In this document: one piece after another, positions 12,391 through 59,964 of the stretch
How positions within the stretch are numbered: the stretch's first letter is position 1
Layout: every line of letters begins with the position of its first letter
Assembly: GCA_029261055.1 (NCBI GenBank)
Contig: JAJDCA010000071.1
Location: forward strand, 25,778 to 89,777
DNA length: 64,000 nucleotides
Direction: 5' to 3'
Source of the DNA: Candidatus Omnitrophota bacterium
Lineage (GTDB): Bacteria > Omnitrophota > Gorgyraeia > Zapsychrales > Zapsychraceae
Notes under the pieces: model-generated
Told to the model about the DNA's origin: nothing
Databases searched by the model: none
Seen by the model: the letters and a program-made list of their open reading frames with translations, nothing else
Translations under genes and position numbers: made by a program

Positions 12391-13763
12391 TTGAACACAT
12401 ATTAGCTAATCTTCAGAGTATCGGCATATTTATTATTTTTCTTGGCATTCTTATTACAGTGCACGAGTGGGGTCATTTTATTACCGCCAAGAAATTAGGT
12501 ATTAACGTGGAAGAATTTGCTTTAGGTTTTGGTCCGACACTTTTAAGTAAGCCCTACAATGGCACGAATTACATGATTAAGCTTTTTCCGTTAGGTGGTT
12601 ATGTAAAAATGGCTGGAGATGAACGGGATCGATGTAAAGGTTTGCCCGAGGAGTTTCTTTCAAAGCCGCCGGGTCATCGGGCCTTAGTGGTCCTTAACGG
12701 GCCGGTAGTGAATTTTGTGTTGGCGTATGTTTGCCTTGTGTTGGTATTTATGCTGGGATTTTCTAATCCTTCGACCGTAGTGGTTGGTATGCGTCAAGGT
12801 CTGCCGGCTCAGGTATCAGGGGTTCAGTTAGGAGATAAAATTGTAGAGGTTGACGGGCAAAAGGTATTTTATTTAAAAGAAATAATATCCCATATTGCAC
12901 AATCCACGCAAGAACAGGTGCAATTAAAAATTTTAAGAAATGGTCAGGAAATTGTAAAAAATATTGAGTCCAGAGTCGTTCATGAAAAAAATATGATTGG
13001 TCAGTATGAAGATAAGAGAACCATTGGGTTAGATGCGAATTCAAGTAAAGTTGGAGGTTTTAGTAAGGATGGTCCGGCGGAAGTTGCGGGATTTCAGGTA
13101 GGTGATCGTATTGTAGAAATCAATGGTCATGAAGTTTTTGGTTGGCAAGATTTGCAGAAGACTGTGAGTGAATCAAAGGAAAAAGCAATTACAATCAAGA
13201 TTTTACGTGAAGGTCAGGAACTTACAAAAATTGTGGCACCGGAAATTAAAAAATTGAAAACACGATCCGGTGAGGAAAAAGAGAAACGGATGATTGGTGT
13301 CGGCGCTATGCCGGAAAAATGGGTGACGCACAAATTTAATTTGTGGACGGCATTAGGGCGAGGGTATCATGAATTTGTTGATATAACAACAATGACCTAC
13401 AAAGCGCTTTATGCTATGGTGACGGGATCGATGTCTGCCCGAGAGAGTGTTGGCGGACCAGTGCTCATATTTAATATTGTTAAAGAAGCCAGTGCTTTGG
13501 GTTTTTCACATTTTCTTTTTATTCTTGGTGTGATCAGCCTTAATTTAGCCATTTTTAATCTTTTGCCCATTATTCCTTTAGATGGGGGCCATTTATTTTT
13601 ATTGGCAATAGAAAAAATTCGGGGGCGAGCGCTTTCGCCCAAGGCAGATGATTTGATCTCCCGAGTTGGTTTAAGTTTGATGATCCTTTTGGCTTTGTAT
13701 GTGTTTTACATTGATTTTGAGAGAATTGGGCTAATTAGTAAAATTAAAGGAATTTTTCACTAA
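12387..13763 (+). CDS. rseP: RIP metalloprotease (site-2 protease) with two PDZ domains
   Basis: HEWGHF zinc motif, tandem PDZ domains, and a C-terminal LDGG motif. ATG overlaps the dxr TGA. Confidence 0.9.
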   Translation: MIEHILANLQSIGIFIIFLGILITVHEWGHFITAKKLGINVEEFALGFGPTLLSKPYNGTNYMIKLFPLGGYVKMAGDERDRCKGLPEEFLSKPPGHRALVVLNGPVVNFVLAYVCLVLVFMLGFSNPSTVVVGMRQGLPAQVSGVQLGDKIVEVDGQKVFYLKEIISHIAQSTQEQVQLKILRNGQEIVKNIESRVVHEKNMIGQYEDKRTIGLDANSSKVGGFSKDGPAEVAGFQVGDRIVEINGHEVFGWQDLQKTVSESKEKAITIKILREGQELTKIVAPEIKKLKTRSGEEKEKRMIGVGAMPEKWVTHKFNLWTALGRGYHEFVDITTMTYKALYAMVTGSMSARESVGGPVLIFNIVKEASALGFSHFLFILGVISLNLAIFNLLPIIPLDGGHLFLLAIEKIRGRALSPKADDLISRVGLSLMILLALYVFYIDFERIGLISKIKGIFH

Positions 13764-13820
13764 TTAAGAGATTGGCTTAACAAATTATTTTGCCAATCTC
13801 CAACGGGTTTAATTTCCCGA
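13761..13820. repeat. Type B element copy 2, truncated, between rseP and the cpaF-like gene
   Basis: TAATTAAGAGATTGGCTTAACAAATTATTTTGCCAATCTCCAACGGGTTTAATTTCCCGA. Confidence 0.8.
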
Positions 13821-16381: not shown

Positions 16382-16840
16382 ATGGCTTGTGAGGAAATAT
16401 CTAAAATTATTGAATCTATTTTGACGCCGTTACTTGATGAATATGATCTTGAACTTTTTGAATTAAATATCAATACACATAATAAGTTTACGATGGTTGA
16501 AGTTATTGCCGATAAGGCTCGCGGCGGGGTTAATATGGGGGAGTGTGGCCGTATTAATAAAGCTCTTTCCAGAGAGATTGAAGAAAAAGAATTGATTGAA
16601 GGTAACTTTAGTGTTGATGTGTGCTCTCCAGGATTAGATCGACCTATGAAAGTTCAGAAAGATTTTGTGCGCGTTATTGGTCGAAATGCAAAATTTCATC
16701 TCACCGAACCTGTGGCAGGTAAATTGGAGCATGATGGTACAATTGAAGATGTTGAACAGGATGATGTTATTATTAAGACAAAATCTGAATCATTAAAAAT
16801 ACCGTTAGCAAAAATTAATAAAGCAGTACAAATTATTTAA
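16382..16840 (+). CDS. rimP: Ribosome maturation factor RimP
   Basis: 152 aa immediately upstream of nusA-infB, with a RimP-like N-domain. Confidence 0.75.
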   Translation: MACEEISKIIESILTPLLDEYDLELFELNINTHNKFTMVEVIADKARGGVNMGECGRINKALSREIEEKELIEGNFSVDVCSPGLDRPMKVQKDFVRVIGRNAKFHLTEPVAGKLEHDGTIEDVEQDDVIIKTKSESLKIPLAKINKAVQII

Positions 16841-16847
16841 TATTAAG

Positions 16848-16896
16848 TGACGCGTCACTAGCGACGCGACACATGAGTCGCCGCCGAAGGCGGCTT
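16848..16896. repeat. GC-rich palindromic leader element (family C, copy 1) containing GTGACGCGTCAC and GCCGCC-gaa-GGCGGC hairpins
   Basis: Shares motifs with the copies at 22461-22522 and 30856-30950. Lies in the rimP-nusA intergenic region / 5' leader. Confidence 0.6.
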
Positions 16897-16917
16897 AATT
16901 TGAGGAAGGATAGAATT

Positions 16918-18183
16918 ATGGGAAACAATGAATTATTAACAATACTGGAACAATTAGAACGTGATAAAGGCATCGAGAAAGAAATTCTTATTGAAGCTGT
17001 TGAAACAGCGGTTGCTTCTGCGGCAAGGAAACTTTGGACGGTGGATAAAGAAGAGGATATTAAGGTTGTTCTTAATCCAAAAACAGGAAAACTTACAGCG
17101 TATGCCGGGGATCAAGAAATTCGATCGACTGAGTTTGGCCGTATTGCTGCTCAAACAGCTAAACAGGTGGTGATTCAGAAAATTCGTGAGGCTGAAAAAG
17201 ATGTGGTTTTTGCGGAGTATCAGGTTAAAATCGGTGAAATTATTTCCGGGAGTGTTTATCGTTTTGATAAAGGCAATATTATTGTTGATTTAGGTAAAGC
17301 TGAGGCCTGCATTCCACGAAGAGAGCAATCAAGTCGGGAAGAATTCCGTCAAGGAGACCGTGTTCGTGTTTATGTTTTGGATGTCAGTCGGGAACACAGA
17401 GGGTCTCAGATTATTTTGTCCCGGGCACATCCTAACTTTGTTAAACGTCTTTTTGAACTGGAGGTGCCGGAAATTTATGAAGGTATCGTGGAAATAAAGT
17501 CGATAGCACGGGATGTGGGAGAGCGGACAAAGATTGCTGTTTATTCTAAGGATGAAAAGGTTGATTGTGTGGGAGCCTGTGTTGGCATGCGTGGATCGCG
17601 TGTTAAAAATATTGTTTCAGAAGTTCAGGGGGAGAAAATAGATATCGTGCGTTATTCATCAGATATCAAAGAATTTATTCAAGCGGCTTTGTCTCCTGCT
17701 GAAATTTCGCAAATTCAGCTCGATTTTGATGTCAAAAAAGCCAATATTATTGTGGATAATGATCAGTTATCTTTAGCCATTGGAAAGCACGGACAGAATG
17801 TTCGTCTTGCCAGCCAATTGGTTGGTTGGGAACTTGATCTATTTTCTTTTGAGCAATGGGAAGAAATCCAGAAGCAGCAGGCAGAAGAAGATGCTAAAGA
17901 AGAGGAAGAAAAAGCAGCAGAAGTTGTAGAGGGTGATGTAGAGGTAGAGGAAGGTTCAGAGGAAGAGGAGAATTCAGAGAGGGCTGATGAGGTTGAGGCA
18001 AATACATTGCAGGATTTGTCAGGTGTTGGAAAAAAAATGGTTGATCAATTGCAAGAGGCTGGTTTTGATTCATTAGAAAAAATTGCCGAGGCAGACACGT
18101 CGGGTTTGACACAGGTCAAAGGTTTAGGTAAAATCAAAGCTGAAAAAATGATTGGAGAAGCTAAATCATTGCTTGAGAAATAA
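16918..18183 (+). CDS. nusA: Transcription termination/antitermination factor NusA with an acidic C-terminal extension
   Basis: S1 + KH domains (GACVGMRGSRV) and HhH repeats. The ATG at 16918 follows a GGAAGGA RBS, so the ORF-track start at 16873 is upstream of the likely start. Confidence 0.92.
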   Translation: MGNNELLTILEQLERDKGIEKEILIEAVETAVASAARKLWTVDKEEDIKVVLNPKTGKLTAYAGDQEIRSTEFGRIAAQTAKQVVIQKIREAEKDVVFAEYQVKIGEIISGSVYRFDKGNIIVDLGKAEACIPRREQSSREEFRQGDRVRVYVLDVSREHRGSQIILSRAHPNFVKRLFELEVPEIYEGIVEIKSIARDVGERTKIAVYSKDEKVDCVGACVGMRGSRVKNIVSEVQGEKIDIVRYSSDIKEFIQAALSPAEISQIQLDFDVKKANIIVDNDQLSLAIGKHGQNVRLASQLVGWELDLFSFEQWEEIQKQQAEEDAKEEEEKAAEVVEGDVEVEEGSEEEENSERADEVEANTLQDLSGVGKKMVDQLQEAGFDSLEKIAEADTSGLTQVKGLGKIKAEKMIGEAKSLLEK

Positions 18184-18241: not shown

Positions 18242-20728
18242 ATGACGGTTACGGAAATTGCAAAAATATACAATACAACGGATGATTACGTTTTAAAGAC
18301 ATTAAAGTCTTTGAAGTTAAAAGCTAAAGGTACTCAACAAGAACTTAATGCCGTGGTTGCGTCTGTTTTAAAAAGTGAATTAAATAAACATAAAGATACT
18401 ATGCCTAAGAAAGGCGAGGAAAAATCGGAAAAAGAAACGACGACTAAGAAAAAGGCTGTAAAAAAGAAGGCTGTAAAAAAAGAAAAAGAAGATTCTGAGA
18501 CAAGCAAAGAAAAGCCTGTTAAAGAAAAGGTAACGAAAGTCAAAGAAACGAAAGTCAAAGAAACGAAGGTCAAAGAATCCAAGGTCAAAGAAACAAAAGT
18601 TAAGAAATCAAAGGTTACAGAAGTCGAAGCTAAAAAGACTGAAAAGCCGGAAGCAACTACGACAAAAAAGAAAGCCACTACTACGAAAAAAGTTGTTACA
18701 AAAGAGCCTGTTAAGGCAAAAGTAAGGATTAGTAATGCCCCCGTTATTACTTTAAAACCTTTGAGTCGTAAAAGACGAAAACCTACAGGACCAGGATCAT
18801 CTGATGCCAGTAAGACAGCTCTTAAACATCAGGCAGAAAAAAGTAATGTGCCAACTGTTCCTGAAGGTGGTTTGGCCGCAGCGATAAAAGAAGCTTCGGC
18901 TGCATCTTTGGCAAATAAAGAATCTTCGGAACAAGAGGCTGTTCCAGAAAAATGGATAAGAGATGAATCCTTGCCGGATTTAGAAATCAATCTTCCTGTT
19001 ACGGTAAAAGAATTAGCGATTAAAATGCAACAGAAACCAAGCTTTGTTTTGAAAGAGTTGATGAAATTGGGTATTCTTGCGCATATTAATCAAAATCTTG
19101 ATGGAGATATTGTTAGTCGATTGACGATTAAGTTTGGATATAACTTAGCAAAGATTAAGACACAAGAAGAGCAGCTTATTGATATTCATAAACATGAAGA
19201 AGAAGATCCAAAACTTTTAAAGTCACGGGCTCCGGTTGTAACGTTTATGGGGCATGTTGATCATGGGAAAACTACCCTTGTAGATAGAATCAGGAAAACA
19301 AAAGTTGCCGATGCTGAGCATGGAGGTATTACGCAGCACATGGGAGCCTATTCTGTTGATCTTAAGAAAGGACGGATTACCTTTTTAGATACACCCGGAC
19401 ACGAAGCGTTTACATCGATGAGAGCGCGTGGCGCACACATTACAGATTTAGTTGTTCTTGTTGTCGCTGCTGATGATGGTATTATGCCGCAGACACAAGA
19501 GGCCATTGATCATGCCCGTGCGGCTAATGTTCCTATTGTTGTGGCGTTGACAAAAATTGACTTGCCCAATGCAGATTGTGATCGTGTTAAAAAACAGTTG
19601 GCTGAAATAAATTTGGCTGCAGAAGACTGGGGTGGAAAAACGGTGACTATCGGTGTATCTGCCATTACCGGAGAAGGGGTTGATGAATTGTTGGAATTGA
19701 TTCTTCTTGAGTCTGAAATGTTAGAGCTAAAAGCTAATACTCAGAAAAAAGCTTCGGGTATTGTCGTTGAAGCCCATATGAGCCAGGGCAAAGGTGCTGT
19801 AACAACGATGATTGTGCAAAGTGGAACATTAAATGCCGGTGAATTTGTTGTTGTAGGTCCTTATTATGGCAAAGTAAGAGCCATGTTTGATGATCACGCT
19901 CGCTCTGTAACAGCAGCTGGACCTTCTATGCCGGTAGAGGTGTTAGGTTTGTCTGATGTGCCTGAGGCAGGCGACATGTTTTATGTTGTGGAGGACGAAA
20001 AGCGAGCCAGAGATATTTCTTTTAAACGGCAGGAGCAGTTAAAAGATAAAAGATTGCATGAAAATCAGAAGCTTACACTTGAAGACCTTCATGCACAGCT
20101 CCAGGAAGGTGCTGTTAAAGAGCTTAATGTAGTGTTGAAGTCAGACGTGCAAGGATCATTAGAGGCGCTAAAAGATTCTTTATCCAAAATTCCTAGTGAT
20201 AAGGTCAAAATAAAATTTATTCATGTTGGCGTCGGTGAAATTAATACATCAGATGTTCTTTTAGCCGCAGCTTCCAAAGCAATTATTATTGCATTTCATG
20301 TTGGGACAGATGTGCGGGCTAAAGAAGAGGTGAGGCGCCAGCCGGTTGAAATACGGGAATACCGTATTATTTATGATGCGGTAACAGATATTAAACAAGC
20401 CCTAGAAGGATTGTTGGAAGCAAAAACAAAGAAAAACTTTTTAGGGCGAGCAGAAATACGTCAGGTTTTTAAACTTTCTAAACACGGTATTGTTGCTGGT
20501 TGTTATTTGATGAAAGGGAAAGTCCATCGCAAAGCTCATGCGGATGTTATTCGGAATGAAGAGGTTGTTTTTTCCGGTAAACTTTCATCTTTAAAGAGAT
20601 TTAAGGATGATGTTAAGGAAGTGACAGAAGGAATGGAATGCGGTATTGTTGTTTCCAATTTTGATAAATATCAATCCGGCGATATTATTGAGATGTATGA
20701 ATTAGAATCGGTAGCTCAAAAATTATGA
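18242..20728 (+). CDS. infB: Translation initiation factor IF-2
   Basis: G-domain [18 protein letters not shown], and NKID motifs. The N-terminus is Lys-rich with KVKETKVKE tandem repeats. Confidence 0.95.
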
Positions 20729-21705
20729 CAAAGACTGTTTTTAGTGCGATGCGTCCGACAGGTAAGCTTCATTTGGGGCATCTTGTTGGTGCTTTAACAA
20801 ATTGGCTTGACCTTCAAGAAAAGTATTCCTGCCTATTCTCCATTGTTGATTGGCATGCCTTGATGGGAGAGTATGAACAAAGTAAGACAATTCACGAGAA
20901 TGTGATTGATATGGCGATTGATTGGATGGCTTGTGGTATTGATCCATCAAAATCCATTCTTTTTGTTCAGTCTCATGTGCCGGAACATTTAGAACTGCAG
21001 ATGATTTTTTCCTGCATAACGCCTTTAGGTTGGTTAGAGCGTAATCCCACTTACAAAGAGCAACTGCGTGAGATTAAGACGCGTGATTTGCAAACTTATG
21101 GTTTTTTAGGGTATCCTGTTTTACAGGCGGCGGATATTTTACTTTACAAAGCTAATGCTGTGCCTATTGGTGAAGACCAATTGCCTCATCTTGAATTATC
21201 CCGCGAAATTTCTCGACGATTCAATCATATTTTTAAAAATGAGTATTTTCCTGATTGCGAAGCCATATTGACTAAGACTCCTCGTCTTTTAGGGATTGAT
21301 GGTCGGAAAATGAGCAAGAGTTATCAGAATGCAATCCATCTTTCAGATTCTAAAGAGGACGTGACAAAGAAAGTAAAAAATATGTTTACCGATCCGAAAC
21401 GGATTAGGCTTTCTGATCCAGGTCATCCTGATGAATGTAATGTGTGTGAGTATTACAAGGTTTTTGCACCAGAAAAAACTGAAGAAGTTCAGGAATGGTG
21501 TACGAAAGCTCAAAAGGGATGTACGGACTGTAAGCAAATTTTAACAGATGAATTGATGCGGCATTTAGAACCTATTCAAGAAAAAAGGGAAGCATTAAGC
21601 AAAAATAAAGACCGAGTGAAAGATATTTTGTATGGTGGTCAAAAACGCGCTAAACAGATAGCCCAAGAAACCATGGGGCAGGTCAAGGAGATCGTATTCG
21701 GATGA
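20725..21705 (+). CDS. trpS: Tryptophanyl-tRNA synthetase
   Basis: Class I HIGH-like motif (GKLHLGHLVG) and KMSKS (KMSKS at aa ~196). ATGA overlap with infB. Confidence 0.93.
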   Translation: MTKTVFSAMRPTGKLHLGHLVGALTNWLDLQEKYSCLFSIVDWHALMGEYEQSKTIHENVIDMAIDWMACGIDPSKSILFVQSHVPEHLELQMIFSCITPLGWLERNPTYKEQLREIKTRDLQTYGFLGYPVLQAADILLYKANAVPIGEDQLPHLELSREISRRFNHIFKNEYFPDCEAILTKTPRLLGIDGRKMSKSYQNAIHLSDSKEDVTKKVKNMFTDPKRIRLSDPGHPDECNVCEYYKVFAPEKTEEVQEWCTKAQKGCTDCKQILTDELMRHLEPIQEKREALSKNKDRVKDILYGGQKRAKQIAQETMGQVKEIVFG

Positions 21706-22445
21706 CTTACAAATTAAAGCTCGATGTTTTTGAGGGACCACTAGATTTACTTCTTTATCTTATTAAGAAGGATGATATTGATATTACGGATATTCCTATT
21801 GCTGAGGTAACAGATCAATATTTGCAGTACATAGAAATGATGAAAATTTTGGATTTAAATGTTGTTGGGGATTTTTTGGTTATGGCAGCCACCTTGATGC
21901 ATATTAAATCTAAAATGCTTCTGCCTCCCGATCCAAATGCTGAAGAAGGGGAAGAAGAGGATCCACGCGATGAATTAGTGAGACGTCTTCATGAATACAA
22001 AAAGTTTAAAGAAGTTGCTGGTGTTTTGAAAACGCGGGAAGAAGATCGTCAAGATTTGTTTCCACGTGTGGTTGATGAGCAGACAACAGAGAAATTAAAA
22101 GAAGATTCTAAAGAAATTTATTTTGAGGCTAATCTTTTTGATTTGATTAATGCCTTAAGTGATGCTTTAAAGAAAGTTCCGGAAGAAGTTATTCATGAAA
22201 TCATCCAGGAAGAGTTTACTATTGAACAGAAAATTCATGATATTTTGCATTGTCTTTTGGAACAGGATAGTACGAAGTTAAAAACTGTATTTGAAAAGGC
22301 TAGGAATAAGGTTGAAATGATTGTGACTTTTCTTGCAGTACTGGAACTTATCAGGTTAAAAGAAATTAAAGCTGTCCAGAAAAACGTATTTGGTGATATT
22401 GAAATTTTGCGGAATAAGGATAACATGGTTCCAGCAGATAATTAG
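21702..22445 (+). CDS. scpA: Segregation and condensation protein A
   Basis: FEGPLDLLLYLIKK N-terminal signature. ATGA overlap with trpS. Confidence 0.88.
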   Translation: MTYKLKLDVFEGPLDLLLYLIKKDDIDITDIPIAEVTDQYLQYIEMMKILDLNVVGDFLVMAATLMHIKSKMLLPPDPNAEEGEEEDPRDELVRRLHEYKKFKEVAGVLKTREEDRQDLFPRVVDEQTTEKLKEDSKEIYFEANLFDLINALSDALKKVPEEVIHEIIQEEFTIEQKIHDILHCLLEQDSTKLKTVFEKARNKVEMIVTFLAVLELIRLKEIKAVQKNVFGDIEILRNKDNMVPADN

Positions 22446-22460
22446 AGATTAAATAATTTT

Positions 22461-22522
22461 AAGGTGACTCGTCGCTCGTGGCGCGTCGCTCGTAAAAAAT
22501 GAGTCACTCGCCACGAGCGACG
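22461..22522. repeat. GC-rich palindromic leader element (family C, copy 2), ending 5 nt before the ruvB ATG
   Basis: TTTTAAGGTGACTCGTCGCTCGTGGCGCGTCGCTCGTAAAAAATGAGTCACTCGCCACGAGCGACG is homologous to the 30856-30950 copy. Confidence 0.65.
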
Positions 22523-22527
22523 ATAAA

Positions 22528-23592
22528 ATGAACGAAAAACGTAAAATTATTTTCAATCAAGAAAATTCTTCCGCATCTGAAAGTAAAAACAGTTCCGGCC
22601 GAGATTCATTGCACCAGCAGGAAACTGAAGAAGATCAAGTTTACAGTCTATCCTTACGCCCTTCCCGTATTGAAGAATTCATTGGACAACAAGAACTAAA
22701 AGATAACTTACAGGTTGCTCTTCAGGCGGCGCAACAACGTAAAGAGCCTATTGAGCATATGCTTTTTTCCGGCCCTCCGGGTTTGGGAAAGACTTCCCTT
22801 GCTAATATTGTGGCCAATCATATGGGAGCACGTCTAACCACAACATCCGGTCCATCTATTACACGGGCTGGTGACTTGATTGGTATTTTGACAAATTTAG
22901 AACATGGCGATGTTTTATTTATTGATGAAATCCATCGCATGTCCAAAACGGTTGAAGAGTTTTTGTATCCGGCCATGGAAAATTTTAAAATTGATTTTAT
23001 TGTCGATAAAGGCCCATATGCGAAAACGATTAATTTTAATTTAAAACCATTCACACTCATTGGCGCTACAACACGCAGTGGGCTTTTAGCTGCTCCTTTA
23101 CGCGATCGTTTCGGCATATTTTATCATTTAGGATTTTACCAGCCGGAAGAGTTAAGCACGATTGTAACAAAGTCTGCAGAGAAATTGAATGTGACCATTA
23201 TGCCGGAAGCTTCTTTAGAGATTGCCCGTCGGGCTCGTGGGACTCCACGTATTGCTAACAGGCTCCTGCGTCGCGTCCGTGATTATGCTCAAGTTAAGAC
23301 CTCAGGAGAAACGATTGGAAAGCACGTTGTAGATGAGGCGATGGGTACGCTCAGAATTGATGTTGCAGGTCTGGATGACTTAGATCGAAGATTAATGCAA
23401 GTCGTCAACGATCATTACAAAGGTGGCCCAGTGGGTATCGAAACCCTAGCCGCCACCCTTAACGAAGAACTCGATACAATCGTCGACGTGGTAGAGCCAT
23501 ATCTTTTGAAAATCGGTTTTCTTAATCGAACCCCCCGCGGTCGGGAATTAACAGATGCAGCCGTGCAGCATATTTTGGTGAATAAAGTGTAA
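22528..23592 (+). CDS. ruvB: Holliday junction branch migration helicase RuvB (with ~45-aa N-terminal extension)
   Basis: GPPGLGKTSLA Walker A, DEIHR Walker B, and RGTPRIANRLLRRVRD sensor / winged-helix region. Confidence 0.93.
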   Translation: MNEKRKIIFNQENSSASESKNSSGRDSLHQQETEEDQVYSLSLRPSRIEEFIGQQELKDNLQVALQAAQQRKEPIEHMLFSGPPGLGKTSLANIVANHMGARLTTTSGPSITRAGDLIGILTNLEHGDVLFIDEIHRMSKTVEEFLYPAMENFKIDFIVDKGPYAKTINFNLKPFTLIGATTRSGLLAAPLRDRFGIFYHLGFYQPEELSTIVTKSAEKLNVTIMPEASLEIARRARGTPRIANRLLRRVRDYAQVKTSGETIGKHVVDEAMGTLRIDVAGLDDLDRRLMQVVNDHYKGGPVGIETLAATLNEELDTIVDVVEPYLLKIGFLNRTPRGRELTDAAVQHILVNKV

Positions 23593-28052: not shown

Positions 28053-28061
28053 TTTTTATTT

Positions 28062-28136
28062 TTAATTAGGAATTTCTAGCTTTAAAGAAATTCCAAAAGG
28101 GTCTAATTCCCCGAGGCTTGCCCCGAGGAGATTCAT
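28062..28136. repeat. Modular intergenic palindromic element, type A copy 1 (hairpin GGAATTTCT-agctttaa-AGAAATTCC + gggtctaattccCCGAGGcttgCCCCGagg module)
   Basis: Near-identical copy at 33227-33300 and a half copy at 31777-31810. The 3' module is shared with the type B elements. Confidence 0.8.
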
Positions 28137-28151
28137 TTTCTTTTACAACAT

Positions 28152-30385: not shown

Positions 30386-30847
30386 ATGAAGCGACTGAGT
30401 GTTCTTTTTTTGCCGTATAGGAAATTATATAATTTCCTATCGGCACCAAAAATACGCCTCAAGTTATTGATGAATGCAATTTTCTTGAGTGTTTTATTTT
30501 TATCGAGTTGTACTAAATTAAAGTACCTTCCGCAGCTTTTAACTCTAAAAGATCTGGCTAATGAGCAGGAACAACTTAATCAGCATGTTGAGGAGGCTGA
30601 TAAAAAATTCCAGAATCTTTTACAGGCCATTAAAACAGACACCATTCGTGTGTATGCTAATCAAAAAGGTATTATTGAGGCTTTCGGTGATCCGGTTCTT
30701 ATTGAGGATGTCGTAGGTCATACGAAGGCTTCAGTAGAATGGATGTATCGTTACTCCACGCAGTTTTTTACTTCAGAAAAAGTCTACCTGTATTTTGATT
30801 CTTCTAAAAATCTTATTGAATGGGAATATGTGCCTGGGAAGGGATAG
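30386..30847 (+). CDS. Putative lipoprotein, unknown function
   Basis: Lipobox LFLSSC; no recognizable domain. Confidence 0.4.
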   Translation: MKRLSVLFLPYRKLYNFLSAPKIRLKLLMNAIFLSVLFLSSCTKLKYLPQLLTLKDLANEQEQLNQHVEEADKKFQNLLQAIKTDTIRVYANQKGIIEAFGDPVLIEDVVGHTKASVEWMYRYSTQFFTSEKVYLYFDSSKNLIEWEYVPGKG

Positions 30848-30855
30848 AAATTTTA

Positions 30856-30950
30856 AGGTAGATCGTCGATCGTGACGCGTGGCTCTTAAAAAACGAGTCA
30901 CTAGTCACGAGCGACGAGCCACTAAAAGTCGCCGAGCGAAAGCGAGGACT
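30856..30950. repeat. GC-rich palindromic element (family C, copy 3) in the convergent gap before greA
   Basis: TTTTAAGGTAGATCGTCGATCGTGACGCGTGGCTCTTAAAAAACGAGTCACTAGTCACGAGCGACGAGCC... is homologous to the ruvB-leader copy. Confidence 0.65.
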
Positions 30951-30953
30951 AAT

Positions 30954-31430
30954 TCATTTCGGTCGTTTAATCTTAAGAATTTTGTATGTGAGTGTGCCCG
31001 CAGGAACCTGGAGATTTACTTCTTCCCCTTCGGTATGCCCGAGAAGCCCTTTGCCAATAGGAGAGTGAATAGAGATTTTACCGGCGTCAAAGTCAGCTTC
31101 CTCAGGAGAAAGGAGTTGATATTTCAACTCTTCTCCGGTATCGACGTCTTTTAACGTTGCAATGGCTCCGATAAAAATTTTATCAGATGGAATATCCTCA
31201 TCTTCGATAATTCGGGTTTTGGCTAATTTGTCTTCCAAGCTGGTAGATCGGGCTACGTTGTGAGCTTGAGCCTCTTTGGCTGCATCATATTCGGCATTCT
31301 CGGAAAGGTCACCTTGAAGCCTGGCTTCTTCAATAGCACCGGAAATTTTGATGCGGTCTTTTTTAAGGTCTTCTAACTCACCGAGTAATCTTTCAAAACC
31401 CGCACGTGTTAAATAAATTTCATCAGACAT
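30954..31430 (-). CDS. greA: Transcription elongation factor GreA
   Basis: N-terminal coiled coil (MSDEIYLTRAGFERLLGELEDLK...) and a C-terminal FKBP-like domain. Confidence 0.92.
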   Translation of the reverse strand: MSDEIYLTRAGFERLLGELEDLKKDRIKISGAIEEARLQGDLSENAEYDAAKEAQAHNVARSTSLEDKLAKTRIIEDEDIPSDKIFIGAIATLKDVDTGEELKYQLLSPEEADFDAGKISIHSPIGKGLLGHTEGEEVNLQVPAGTLTYKILKIKRPK

Positions 31431-31711: not shown

Positions 31712-31776
31712 AAATTACTTGGACAATTGTTTGATTTTGATCAACGTACTTTTACGTTAATTTAAGAAAATTTGTT

Positions 31777-31810
31777 TAATTAGGAATTTCTAGCTTTAAA
31801 GAAATTCCAA
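31777..31810. repeat. Type A element, truncated copy (first hairpin only)
   Basis: TTAATTAGGAATTTCTAGCTTTAAAGAAATTCCAA is identical to the 5' half of the 28062 copy. Confidence 0.75.
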
Positions 31811-31828
31811 TTTTGGACAACTCCTCAT

Positions 31829-32122
31829 TTAAAGTCCTGGAAATCCTCCGGGTAAAACTGATTTCATTTTTTGTGCGGCTACGTTTTGTGATTTTTTAAC
31901 GGCGCCATTGATACTGCGTAGAAGTTCAGACTCTAATTTAGTTTTGCGGTCTGGAGTAAGAAGATCTTCATTTACTTCAATGGATTGAAAATATTGTGCC
32001 CCATTAATGGTGATCTTAATCCCACGGCCTTCATCAGATTCTGTAATTGAGGCATCTAACTCACGTTTGATTTTGTCAGCCTGCTTTTTCATTTCCATGA
32101 GTTGTTTCATTTTGTCAAACAT
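31829..32122 (-). CDS. ybaB: Nucleoid-associated protein YbaB/EbfC
   Basis: 97 aa with the N-terminal MKQLMEMKKQ..., the central segment I.I.G and the terminal PGGFPGL. Confidence 0.88.
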   Translation of the reverse strand: MFDKMKQLMEMKKQADKIKRELDASITESDEGRGIKITINGAQYFQSIEVNEDLLTPDRKTKLESELLRSINGAVKKSQNVAAQKMKSVLPGGFPGL

Positions 32123-32546: not shown

Positions 32547-33221
32547 TTAAAAAACTTTAAACAAATTGCCATCAATAATTTTTTGTTCGACACGATCAAA
32601 GAGGCGTTTGGCTTTTTGAGTAATATCGTCCATTTCACCCATAATAGAATTAAGGCCTTCGGCGGTGCCTAAAAGCGCTTTGGAGGATTCGATCATGACT
32701 TCGGATAATTCCAACATATTAATTTTACTCATTTCTTCGGATGTCTTTGTGAAAGAGGCGGCTGCATGGGAAAATTGCTCTGCTATGTCTTGCACATCAA
32801 GTGGGTCTTCGCCGATGACCGGTTGGGTTAAGTTAAGTACCCCGCCTTGGTCTACAGTGTAGATTTCAATCAATTTTTCCCCTAGGATGCCTTCCGTTTT
32901 AATAACAAAACGGGCATTTGTTTGGAGTTGATTTTTGTATTTTTCAAAGATGTTGAGGATAACTTTTACTTTGCGTCCTTTGATAGCTTTTTCAAGAAAG
33001 TCAATACTAGCGACATTTCCAACACTGACGCCAGAAAGACGGGTGGGAGCGCCTTCCGTAAGGCCACCGACATTACGAAAAAGCACCGTGACTTGAAATT
33101 TTGCTTTTGCCAATCCTTTATCTTTACTGATGGCAAAAATAAAACTACCAATCAGGAAGAGACCGATAAGAAAGAATATTCCAGCAGATAAATATTTGAT
33201 AAATTCTTTTTGTTCGTTCAT
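32547..33221 (-). CDS. mlaD: MCE-domain protein MlaD (phospholipid ABC transport periplasmic subunit)
   Basis: N-terminal TM plus the MCE domain (VLFRNVGGLTEGAPTRLSGVSVGNV). Clustered with mlaE/mlaF. Confidence 0.85.
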   Translation of the reverse strand: MNEQKEFIKYLSAGIFFLIGLFLIGSFIFAISKDKGLAKAKFQVTVLFRNVGGLTEGAPTRLSGVSVGNVASIDFLEKAIKGRKVKVILNIFEKYKNQLQTNARFVIKTEGILGEKLIEIYTVDQGGVLNLTQPVIGEDPLDVQDIAEQFSHAAASFTKTSEEMSKINMLELSEVMIESSKALLGTAEGLNSIMGEMDDITQKAKRLFDRVEQKIIDGNLFKVF

Positions 33222-33226
33222 TGTAT

Positions 33227-33300
33227 TAATTAAGGAATTTCTAGTTTTAAAGAAATTCCAAAAGGGTCTAATTCCCCGAGGCTTGCCTCGAGGAGATTCA
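33227..33300. repeat. Type A element copy 2, inserted between mlaF and mlaD inside the mla operon
   Basis: 74 bp with ~96% identity to the 28062-28136 copy. Confidence 0.8.
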
Positions 33301-34017
33301 ATTCATCAAGAAATCTTTAACAAAAGGATCTTGTGATTTTCTTAATTCAGATTCTGTGCCTTGAGCCGTAATTTTTCCGCCGTGCATTAAGACGACGCGG
33401 TCGGCAATACGAAAAGAATTGCGAATGTCGTGCGAAGTAATCACGGTCGTGCAGTTGAGTTTTCTGGATGCATCATGGATTAAATCTGAGATATCCCGGC
33501 TTCGTATGGGGTCTAACCCGGAAGTCGGTTCATCGCAAAAAAGAATTTTTGAATCTAGGATAATAGCACGGGCTAAGGCCACACGTTTACGCATTCCGCC
33601 ACTTAACTCAGAAGGGTAAACTTTCTCAATACCTTTTAAATCTACGATTTCTAGAATTTCTGTGACCTTTTGGGCAATAATTTTTTTGCTAAATTGTGTA
33701 TGTTCGTGCAGAGGAAAAGCAATATTTTCAGCCACGTTCATAAAATCATACAAGGCCCCTTCTTGAAAAAGATAACCAATATTGGATCTGATTTTTAACA
33801 ATTCTTTTTCAGAGAGGCAAGTAATATCTTTGGCATTGATATGGATTGCCCCTTGATCTGGTTTTAAAAGTCCGATTAAATGTTTTAAAAGAACGCTTTT
33901 GCCTGTGCCGCTTTGGCCAAGAACTACAAGAATTTCTCCTTCTTTGATCTCTAAATTAATGTTATCCAGGACAGATTTTCCAGAAAATGTCTTTGAAAGA
34001 TTTTCAATTTTGATCAT
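33298..34017 (-). CDS. mlaF: ABC transporter ATP-binding protein MlaF
   Basis: MIKIENLSKTF..., Walker A GQSGTGKS, LSGGMRKRV, Walker B ILFCDEPTSGLD. The start at 34017 is an internal ATG of the longer ORF 33298..34131. Confidence 0.88.
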   Translation of the reverse strand: MIKIENLSKTFSGKSVLDNINLEIKEGEILVVLGQSGTGKSVLLKHLIGLLKPDQGAIHINAKDITCLSEKELLKIRSNIGYLFQEGALYDFMNVAENIAFPLHEHTQFSKKIIAQKVTEILEIVDLKGIEKVYPSELSGGMRKRVALARAIILDSKILFCDEPTSGLDPIRSRDISDLIHDASRKLNCTTVITSHDIRNSFRIADRVVLMHGGKITAQGTESELRKSQDPFVKDFLMN

Positions 34018-41600: not shown

Positions 41601-41620
41601 GAATTAATTTTGGCAATTAT

Positions 41621-41745
41621 TTAATTAAGAGATTGGCTGAACAAATTATTTAGCCAATCTCCAACGGGTTTAATTCCTCGAGGCTTGCCTCGTATTTAGG
41701 AATTCCGTTTGATACCTCGTGGGCTTGCCCCGGGGAGACTTCATT
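41621..41745. repeat. Modular intergenic palindromic element, type B copy 3 (hairpin GAGATTGGC-loop-GCCAATCTC + ccaacgggtttaattcc + CGAGGcttgCCTCG, plus a further degenerate module)
   Basis: Other copies: 13761-13820 (same orientation, truncated) and 2800-2920 (reverse orientation, with an extra module). Confidence 0.8.
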
Positions 41746-59510: not shown

Positions 59511-59735
59511 TTATCGTCTTTTCTTTGCTGCTTTCTTTTTTGTCGCTTTTTTCTTTACAGCTTTTTTCTTTGTTACCGCTTTTTTTGTTGCTTTTTTCTT
59601 TACGGTTTTTTTCTTTGTCACTGCTTTCTTTACAGCTTTTTTCTTTGTTACAGCCTTTTTCTTTGTTACGGCTTTTTTCTTTGTTACCTTTTTCTTTACG
59701 GCTTTTTTCTTTGTTGCTTTCTTTTTGACTGCCAT
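59511..59735 (-). CDS. Lysine/alanine-rich histone H1-like small basic protein built of tandem (A/V)(V/T)KKK(A) repeats
   Basis: 74 aa [21 protein letters not shown].... Strong AGGAGG RBS 7 nt upstream, and a terminator downstream. Confidence 0.75.
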   Translation of the reverse strand: MAVKKKATKKKAVKKKVTKKKAVTKKKAVTKKKAVKKAVTKKKTVKKKATKKAVTKKKAVKKKATKKKAAKKRR

Positions 59736-59964
59736 ATGATTCCTCCTTTGGTTAGGTTTTTTCTAACGTTTATATTTTCATAGTAGCATACTGTTTTGCA
59801 TATGCAAAAATAATCTGAGGTTTTTTGAGAAGAATTTTATTAAATTTTTAAAAAAAGCGTTTTTTGTCGACGAGAAATATGGTAAGTGGTTTAAAGAAAT
59901 AAAATAAAGTAAAGTTTATTTATAAATATAAAGAATAAAAATAATTTTTTAAAAAAATTAAATA

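Follow-up and report, generated by a model that had tools for sequence, protein, structure and literature searches.

Three GC-rich blocks in a 64-kb stretch of the genome of a Candidatus Omnitrophota bacterium (64,000 nucleotides, contig JAJDCA010000071.1, positions 25,778 to 89,777; "the window" means this whole stretch) lie between rimP and nusA, between scpA and ruvB, and in a convergent gap beside greA, where an initial annotation had correctly placed them. We consider it probable (about 0.7) that these blocks belong to one small dispersed repeat, palindromic and non-coding, of the miniature inverted-repeat transposable element (MITE) or repetitive extragenic palindrome (REP) type, whose arms consist of heptamer simple sequence repeats (SSRs). 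Of the three copies, two are complete, and the third is degenerate and partial. The element is a member of a heptamer-array class that is abundant in Planctomycetota and present in Omnitrophota. Its period-7 anatomy, the homology of the two complete copies, their hairpin potential, the polarity of insertion and the phylogenetic spread of the unit are all direct observations. The copies and their parts are as follows.

22455 to 22529, plus strand: full copy 1, between scpA and ruvB (covariance model 102 bits, E = 6e-25)
Starting at 22455: 5' end of copy 1, AATTTTAAG
22464 to 22493: 5' arm of copy 1, GTGACTC GTCGCTC GTGGCGC GTCGCTC GT
22494 to 22500: loop of copy 1, AAAAAAT
22501 to 22523: 3' arm of copy 1, GAGTCAC TCGCCAC GAGCGAC GA
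Terminus of copy 1: TAAAA(T), overlapping the first bases of the ruvB ATG
30849 to 30927, plus strand: full copy 2, in the convergent gap between the open reading frame (ORF) at 30386-30847 and greA (covariance model 112 bits, E = 2e-27)
5' end of copy 2: AATTTTAAG, as in copy 1
30858 to 30887: 5' arm of copy 2, GTAGATC GTCGATC GTGACGC GTGGCTC TT
30888 to 30894: loop of copy 2, AAAAAAC
30895 to 30922: 3' arm of copy 2, GAGTCAC TAGTCAC GAGCGAC GAGCCAC
Terminus of copy 2: TAAAA
30928 to 30950: GC-rich tail module adjoining copy 2, GTCGCCGAGCGAAAGCGAGGACT, resembling the 3' part of the nusA block (alignment with 16873-16900)
16843 to 16879, plus strand: degenerate partial copy in the rimP/nusA gap, a direct array AAGTGAC GCGTCAC TAGCGAC GCGACAC ATGAGTC with no 3' arm
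16880 to 16900, plus strand: GC hairpin in the nusA block, GCCGCCGAAGGCGGC then TTAATT, terminator-like, with six GC pairs and a loop of three

Copies 1 and 2 are 86% identical over 69 ungapped nucleotides (22455-22523 against 30849-30917), which bears out the initial annotation's alignment of about 65 bp. With one indel of 5-6 nt the match extends into the common TAAAA; this indel lies in the 3' arm, where copy 2 has GCCAC and copy 1 does not, leaving copy 1 one heptamer short there. Their unit variants come in the same order, and the two copies also agree in the A6 loop, in the TAAAA terminus and in a 5' flank, AATTTTAAGGT, that is not part of the repeat; in both, the ends of the whole element read TTTTAAGG...TAAAA. 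A search for the 20-mer CGCCACGAGCGACGAGTCAC, suggested by the initial annotation and run within the window, returned one exact occurrence (22464-22483, minus strand) and one with three mismatches (30903-30922), with none in 100 shuffles. When a covariance model was built from copies 1 and 2 and applied to the window at full sensitivity, it found just these two, on both strands. The nusA block, which the initial annotation had counted as a copy, was the best non-significant match of the model (E = 2), and its pairwise scores of 50-51 compare with shuffle means of 20-24, one of 300 shuffles having reached 49; we therefore keep it as a weak relative only.

One trait of a MITE-type repeat seen here is a pair of homologous non-coding copies with inverted ends, in a total of only two to three copies in 64 kb. 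The difference in unit number is seen between copies 1 and 2 only, the sole other assembly being identical. In the ruvB region this independent Logan assembly matches the window exactly, so an assembly artifact is unlikely. The blocks as initially delimited have GC contents of 65%, 60% and 54%, not the roughly 65-70% first given for them; the genome stands at 38% and non-ORF DNA at 34%. Coding 40-mers of at least 62% GC are frequent in the window, and GC content alone is consequently not a distinguishing criterion.

A degenerate 7-nt unit, repeated head to tail at intervals of exactly 7 nt, makes up all three blocks. Its sequence is GTNNCTC in the 5' arm and GAGNNAC in the 3' arm, equivalent in register to ACGAGNN. 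The regular expression (NNGNNAC)x3 matches at exactly these three loci in the 64 kb, with 0.1 matches expected. Tandem Repeats Finder at ordinary thresholds misses the window arrays because their units are degenerate and few, and a combination of regular expressions and lag-7 analysis was used instead. Since near-identical 7-nt units in the two arms can pair in several registers, each copy offers several alternative pairings. These alternatives are a by-product of the repeated units and not a riboswitch.

As RNA, the copies fold at -40.7 and -40.4 kcal/mol (z = -6.3 and -4.1 against dinucleotide shuffles), and DNA folds of both strands of both copies give z values from -6.4 to -3.6, the strands being about equal. 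The palindrome reaches out to TTTTA/TAAAA, and copy 1 contains a perfect outer stem of 15 bp in which 22469-22483 pairs with 22509-22523. The pairings named in the initial annotation do exist: GTGACTC (22464-70) is complementary to GAGTCAC (22501-07), TCGCTCGTGGCG (22472-83) to CGCCACGAGCGA (22510-21), and GCCGCC to GGCGGC within 16880-94. The first of these is missing from copy 2, which has GTAGATC as its 5' unit. An H-type pseudoknot combining GTGACTC/GAGTCAC with the long stem was considered for copy 1 and rejected, as its connecting loops would be only 1 and 2 nt long and the pairing is not conserved in copy 2. The orientation of the hairpins relative to the genes was dropped as a variable, being meaningless for a palindrome.

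The best named matches to the RuvB of the window come from Candidatus Omnitrophica/Omnitrophota, the nearest non-self protein being 76-79% identical. The gene order dxr-rseP-T2SSE-aminoacyl-tRNA synthetase-rimP-nusA-infB-(trpS)-scpA-ruvB-spoIID-queA is kept in three relatives (L097, L098/L099 and L100; fetched loci carry L numbers throughout), with trpS not called in L100. The rimP/nusA gap measures 1, 13 and 5 nt in L097, L098 and L100, against 77 nt in the window, and the scpA/ruvB gap 21, 4 and 8 nt, against 82 nt. No such element is present at either junction of these three syntenic relatives, which are distant (RuvB 73-79% identical). Short gaps in all three indicate lineage-specific insertion and, by parsimony, the blocks are insertions in the lineage of the window and not conserved leaders. 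Shared non-repeat flanks and loop, unrelated contexts and insertion relative to three relatives together make one of the two proposals of the initial annotation, a distinct MITE family, essentially right.

The unit itself extends far beyond the window. With a seed of 19 specified bases drawn from the 3' arm, GAGTCACNNNNCACGAGCGACGA, a search of GTDB genomes (596 Gb) gave 91 matches, where simple arithmetic predicts about 4-8 by chance. Among the 80 matches with titles, 64 are from Planctomycetota (Pirellulales, Sedimentisphaerales, Phycisphaerae) and 3 from Omnitrophota. The NNNN positions of the seed are nearly always GAGN or GGGN, which identifies the matches as tandem heptamers with the unit ACGAGNN; the arrays run to 3-9 units, and one has 17. 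Some seed loci are single arrays, and a substantial minority adjoin an inverted array. The covariance model from the window copies recovers hairpins of the same architecture at L043, L049, L087, L007, L025, L011, L079, L027, L029, L039 and L012; where hairpin loci were picked through the seed, this selection affects the 3' arm and leaves the 5' arm unbiased. Minimum free energy pairing of the 91 arrays had no control and serves qualitatively only.

About 60% of the seeded arrays look non-coding, and 55 of 72 unseeded period-7 arrays lie outside long ORFs. Nine of the 91 seeded arrays end 10 nt or less ahead of the ATG of a same-strand ORF of at least 100 amino acids, compared with one of 91 in the opposite orientation. 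Of the unseeded period-7 arrays, 25% have a stop codon within 10 nt, versus 5.6% of control intergenic segments, and 27% have a start codon within 30 nt, versus 9.4%, an overall enrichment of 3-4 times beside gene ends and starts. Tandem repeats of at least three copies located more than 250 nt from the seeds (L002-L092) are dominated by period 7 (n = 66), followed by periods 8 (n = 16), 6 (n = 4) and 9 (n = 3). Heptamer SSRs are thus in excess generally, with ACGAGNN as one abundant example. The period-7 units away from the seeds are many and unrelated (TGATTAT, GACGATG, GTTCATA, ATTTTGC, GGCAGTC, AAATCCT and others), and different arrays often adjoin.

Packaged forms of the array occur in both phyla. 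The Pirellulales metagenome-assembled genome (MAG) CAZFLY01 carries five copies of a MITE-like repeat of about 250 nt (L006, L015, L039, L052, L072), in which the 5' module is a heptamer-array hairpin and the 3' module a second long hairpin with a variable insert. Within Omnitrophota, heptamer hairpins are found at ybeY/recO in L034 (~1225-1299), ending 2 nt before the recO ATG, at rmlB/rmlD in L029 (2609-2685), overlapping the rmlB stop codon, and at trmD/rplS in L100 (15715-15860), with the related unit ACAAGNN. Among viral contigs the heptamer seed had one match, within a coding region; we do not regard the motif as phage-associated.

ACGAGNN arrays also occur in frame in apparent coding sequences (L004/L058, L021/L075 and L116 4105-4135), the hosts being an RHS/YD-like protein, a ribD-like protein and an ORF of a viral contig. 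There they encode short inserts of the SHEPRATS/TSHGSRATSDE type at orthologous positions in different MAGs. In three Pirellulales MAGs (L003, L017, L090) the motif TGGTGGCA(C/T)TGGCAC...TAT(A/G)ACTGGGT recurs 10-40 nt past the array and is a candidate for a conserved gene start or for a promoter-like element.

One gene family keeps company with these arrays. In the fetched Planctomycetota loci, the four-helix-bundle PF05635 genes (Avd/S23p-like, bAvd-like) are followed by an ACGAGNN array in all eight cases.

L022, 1819-2175: PF05635 gene
L059, 4356-4709: PF05635 gene
L035, L064, L074 (reverse strand): PF05635 genes
L101, L105, L115 401-754: PF05635 genes

Four of the eight were not selected by the seed, namely L064 and the three fetched through the protein (L101, L105, L115). 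Opening with (C/T)GAGTCAC at -1 to +6 nt from the stop codon, the array extends to 2-17 nt before the next ATG (3-4 nt in the three unseeded contexts), and there is no Shine-Dalgarno (SD) sequence. In five of the eight an inverted array lies just upstream, so that a stem folding at -29 to -55 kcal/mol encloses the gene in its loop. Such cassettes split operons, lying for instance between the genes for V-ATPase subunits C and F or ahead of hypC, and gene callers lengthen the four-helix-bundle proteins through the upstream arrays, to 125-135 amino acids against a true 117.

The genes that flank the blocks in the window, and one short motif at the foot of copy 1, bear on what the repeat might do there.

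16382 to 16840, plus strand: rimP (Pfam), upstream of the nusA block
16918 to 18183, plus strand: nusA (Pfam), true start at ATG 16918, preceded by an SD
21702 to 22445, plus strand: scpA (PF02616, E = 2e-42), stop codon 9 nt before copy 1
22461 to 22467, plus strand: SD-like AAGGTGA at the 5' foot of the copy 1 hairpin, read from the sequence
22528 to 23592, plus strand: ruvB (Pfam), downstream of copy 1
30954 to 31430, minus strand: greA (Pfam), convergent with the ORF at 30386-30847, with copy 2 and its tail in the greA 3' region

The ruvB ATG at 22528 fits the N termini of homologues (MNEKRKIIFN against MDEKRKIVFN and MEEHRKIVFN). Most other genes of the window have an SD of the GGAG/AAGGA type 6-10 nt ahead of the ATG, a position in which ruvB lacks one. 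The main stem of copy 1 ends at 22523, 4 nt ahead of this ATG, with no SD between, and in terms of geometry the initial annotation was right to describe the block as abutting the ruvB start. Initiation at ruvB should therefore depend on the helix. With the stem folded, AAGGTGA lies 1 nt plus 4 nt from the ruvB AUG; a stem that places it there would have, on this model, an effect opposite to the occlusion that had been proposed. At nusA, an in-frame ATG at 16873 inside the repeat leads mechanical ORF calling to a protein of 436 amino acids, and the start at ATG 16918 gives 421, matching NusA N termini. The GC hairpin at 16880-16900 sits upstream of the nusA SD (GAGGAAGGA).

We propose that the arrays grow and shrink by slippage in 7-nt steps, and that the entire palindrome can be copied to new intergenic sites by some DNA-level mechanism. 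In this lineage it would have inserted into once-tight rimP/nusA and scpA/ruvB junctions and into a convergent gap. Within a polycistronic mRNA, each copy would form a helix of about 20-25 bp at roughly -40 kcal/mol, which could set up a barrier between cistrons or mark a site of processing, by stopping 3' exonucleases or by offering RNase III a substrate, and so uncouple downstream cistrons from upstream ones. Translation of ruvB may depend on the state of the helix, being occluded by it, released by its cleavage or served by AAGGTGA. By analogy with REP/BIME, Correia and intervening-sequence stems, post-transcriptional effects appear most likely.

In annotation work it would be a mistake to take these blocks for riboswitches or leaders of nusA and ruvB, and gene callers should be expected to push ORFs into the arrays, as at the spurious nusA start at 16873. 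Heptamer excess, known from cyanobacteria, Xanthomonas, Beggiatoaceae and Chloroflexus, now extends to Planctomycetota and Omnitrophota with the new unit ACGAGNN, and heptamer arrays can be packaged as a dispersed palindrome in tight junctions of essential-gene operons. The recurring geometry of an array or stem that ends 2-4 nt before an SD-less AUG, together with the PF05635 linkage, provides testable handles on heptamer function.

Several other explanations for the blocks were weighed. The second proposal of the initial annotation was that they are gene-specific switchable RNA leaders of nusA and ruvB (riboswitch, attenuator or thermosensor) acting through mutually exclusive helices. They do lie directly upstream of both genes, stable alternative helices can be drawn and the two copies differ by one compensatory pair, but Rfam gave no match at the gathering threshold anywhere in the window, and a permissive scan of 22380-22600 (E up to 10) returned only sub-threshold hairpins resembling eukaryotic microRNAs and small nucleolar RNAs. 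The three syntenic relatives have gaps of 1-21 nt at these junctions and no element, another copy occupies a convergent gap with no gene downstream, both strands fold alike, the GTGACTC/GAGTCAC helix does not persist in copy 2, and the 7-nt periodicity already accounts for the pairing degeneracy. An element that is present in one lineage only, and in a convergent gap as well, is not a conserved riboswitch or attenuator; we judge the leader explanation very improbable and, for practical purposes, already refuted. There is next to no chance that the blocks are remnants of a GC-rich, foreign protein-coding gene, the refuting scenario named in the initial annotation. The GC contrast with non-ORF DNA (54-65% against 34%) is what such an origin would leave, but the blocks are palindromes of about 75 nt with a period of 7, which is no multiple of 3, their arms are reverse complements of each other, and identical units occur in intergenic arrays across Planctomycetota.

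A dispersed repeat must also be set against local origin and against selected function. Each block could have been made in place by heptamer slippage, without any locus being copied to another. Related phyla are indeed rich in heptamer SSRs of many unit types, the 5-6 nt indel leaves one arm a heptamer short, and heptamer excess is ascribed to slippage in a passage of Rehm 2015 (PMC4692102) citing Mrazek 2007. Independent slippage would not, however, reproduce what copies 1 and 2 share, from the AATTTTAAGGT flank, A6 loop, TAAAA and order of unit variants to 86% identity over 69 nt and a 20-mer found in no shuffle, and we regard separate local origins as improbable. We see a similarly small chance that the blocks are selected terminators or insulators, stopping minus-strand transcription (greA or an antisense RNA) and, at the nusA block, partly terminating after rimP. 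Both copies contain minus-strand terminator-like hairpins followed by TTTTTT (22521-22503 and 30915-30897) with an identical A6/T6 loop, a small terminator-like hairpin in the tail module (minus strand, 30945-30929) precedes CTTTTAG just past the greA stop codon, and GCCGCCGAAGGCGGC with TTAATTT follows rimP. The region nevertheless has 18 terminator-like sites against 14.5 +/- 4.7 in shuffles, which is no excess. The minus-strand stems are weak (5-8 pairs including G-T) with a spacer (TCG/TCA) before the T6, the full fold turns the T-run into the loop of the long hairpin, the plus strand has no U-tract after the hairpin, and relatives manage without the element at these junctions.

A further possibility would add to the dispersed repeat a history and a partner. 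The window hairpins might be gene-less miniatures of a mobile cassette spread in the PVC superphylum (Planctomycetes, Verrucomicrobia and Chlamydiae), similar to intervening sequences (IVSs) and carrying PF05635, with ACGAGNN conserved through a trans-acting factor. We consider this unlikely. The linkage of PF05635 genes to the arrays suggests it, as does the resemblance of the window stems to those around such genes in Planctomycetota; six-frame translation of the 64-kb window revealed no PF05635-like gene and no ORF of the S-I-P-S-N-I-A-E-G type. If it were true, the candidate trans-acting factors would be the four-helix-bundle protein, RNase III and the ribosome, and the arrays would be a portable intercistronic module that allows an insertion to be processed out and the downstream cistron to be translated. 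Nearly all PF05635 genes would then carry CGAGTCAC arrays at their stop codons, and solo hairpins would share arm variants with nearby loaded cassettes.

For the dispersed palindrome that we favor, a number of observations pull the other way. There are only two good copies to judge by within 64 kb. No direct repeat that could be a target-site duplication was seen in the flanks of copies 1 and 2, read directly, and no transposase or RAYT was identified, no systematic search for either having been made in the window. In Joint Genome Institute (JGI) metagenomes the family-specific 5' pattern TTAAGGTNNNTCGTCGNTCGTG had four matches, all of them chance and without heptamer hairpins. The persistence of the ACGAGNN unit across two phyla is poorly explained by slippage alone and suggests a trans-acting factor. 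Between copies 1 and 2 there is one compensatory change from G-C to A-U and one conserved G-U, a hint of selection on the plus-strand RNA that may slightly favor function over pure junk; two sequences prove nothing. Finally, the barrier, processing and translation effects proposed above draw on analogy with other systems.

The window holds two further dispersed repeat families, one at 28056-28138, 33221-33303 and 31770-31852 and the other at 2853-2927, 13761-13820 and 41619-41693. Both have an AT-rich hairpin of 9-12 bp followed by a shared tail of the GGGT(C/T)TAATT(C/T)CCCGAGG type, with 90-96% identity and copies in both orientations, and presumably correspond to families A and B of the initial annotation. 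In addition, 15-nt (5-codon) tandem repeats lie inside coding regions at 59519-59761 and 18443-18616. These are AAG/AAA-rich on one strand and encode lysine-rich low-complexity segments, one in the N-terminal part of infB, and the two loci are similar as reverse complements.

Parts of this arrangement recall known systems. In phage T4 genes 38 and 25, split ribosome-binding sites are bridged by a hairpin. At ruvB, AAGGTGA and the AUG are likewise parted by a stem-loop whose folding would, as modeled, restore the SD-AUG spacing. The copy 1 stem is far longer and more stable (about -40 kcal/mol) than those of T4, and copy 2 has the same 5' end without a downstream gene.

REP/BIME, Correia/NEMIS, ERIC, RUP, Rickettsia RPE and cyanobacterial Nezha elements are GC-rich imperfect palindromes of 35-150 nt found in intergenic regions and operon junctions. 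Palindromes of the REP/BIME type are lineage-specific insertions and, once transcribed, REP/MITE-type hairpins can shield the mRNA upstream, undergo RNase III cleavage (Correia) or change the expression of a neighboring gene. The window element resembles REP/BIME and palindromic MITEs as a GC-rich imperfect palindrome at junctions, with a stable hairpin and lineage-specific insertion. It differs in having no REP-type GTAG head and no visible target-site duplication, and in the internal 7-nt periodicity of its arms.

The IVSs of 23S rRNA in Coxiella and Leptospira have terminal inverted repeats that form a stem of about 25-30 bp cut by RNase III; in the Coxiella IVS, RNase III cuts a 28-bp stem enclosing an S23p ORF (Warrier 2016, PMC4990558). 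A Planctomycetota PF05635 gene in the loop of a heptamer-array stem is like such an rRNA IVS placed in mRNA, and the 3' arms of those cassettes and of the window copies both start with (C/T)GAGTCAC. Unlike the IVSs, the window copies have loops of 7-9 nt without an ORF and lie in mRNA spacers rather than rRNA, and RNase III cleavage is here only predicted.

The closest parallel is with bacterial heptamer SSRs, which are over-represented and unexplained, heterogeneous in unit, about four units long, intergenic and sometimes inverted (Rehm 2015, PMC4692102). Examples include the STRR of Calothrix and Nostoc (Mazel 1990, as quoted in Rehm 2015, PMC4692102), GGGAATC in Xanthomonas and GGGGAYT in Nostoc (Rehm 2015, PMC4692102), and GATAGRA repeats in Chloroflexus (PMC6749651). 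TAACTGA of Beggiatoaceae, Cyanobacteria and Bacteroidetes lies a few nucleotides upstream of start codons without an SD (MacGregor 2015, PMC4679880), and Nostoc heptamers abut or overlap the recO start codon (bioRxiv 10.1101/2022.06.06.494920). The arrays described here agree with these in having a 7-nt unit with fixed and free positions, some 3-6 units, mostly intergenic locations, occasional inverted stem-loop pairs and a frequent position a few nucleotides from SD-less start codons, and slippage or a binding protein has been proposed for such repeats. In the literature searched, whose coverage was incomplete, we found no report of the unit ACGAGNN or of heptamer repeats in Planctomycetes/Planctomycetota or Omnitrophota. 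What sets the window apart from the known heptamer SSRs is that it contains two homologous copies of a complete palindrome with shared non-repeat ends and loop, and hence a dispersed element.

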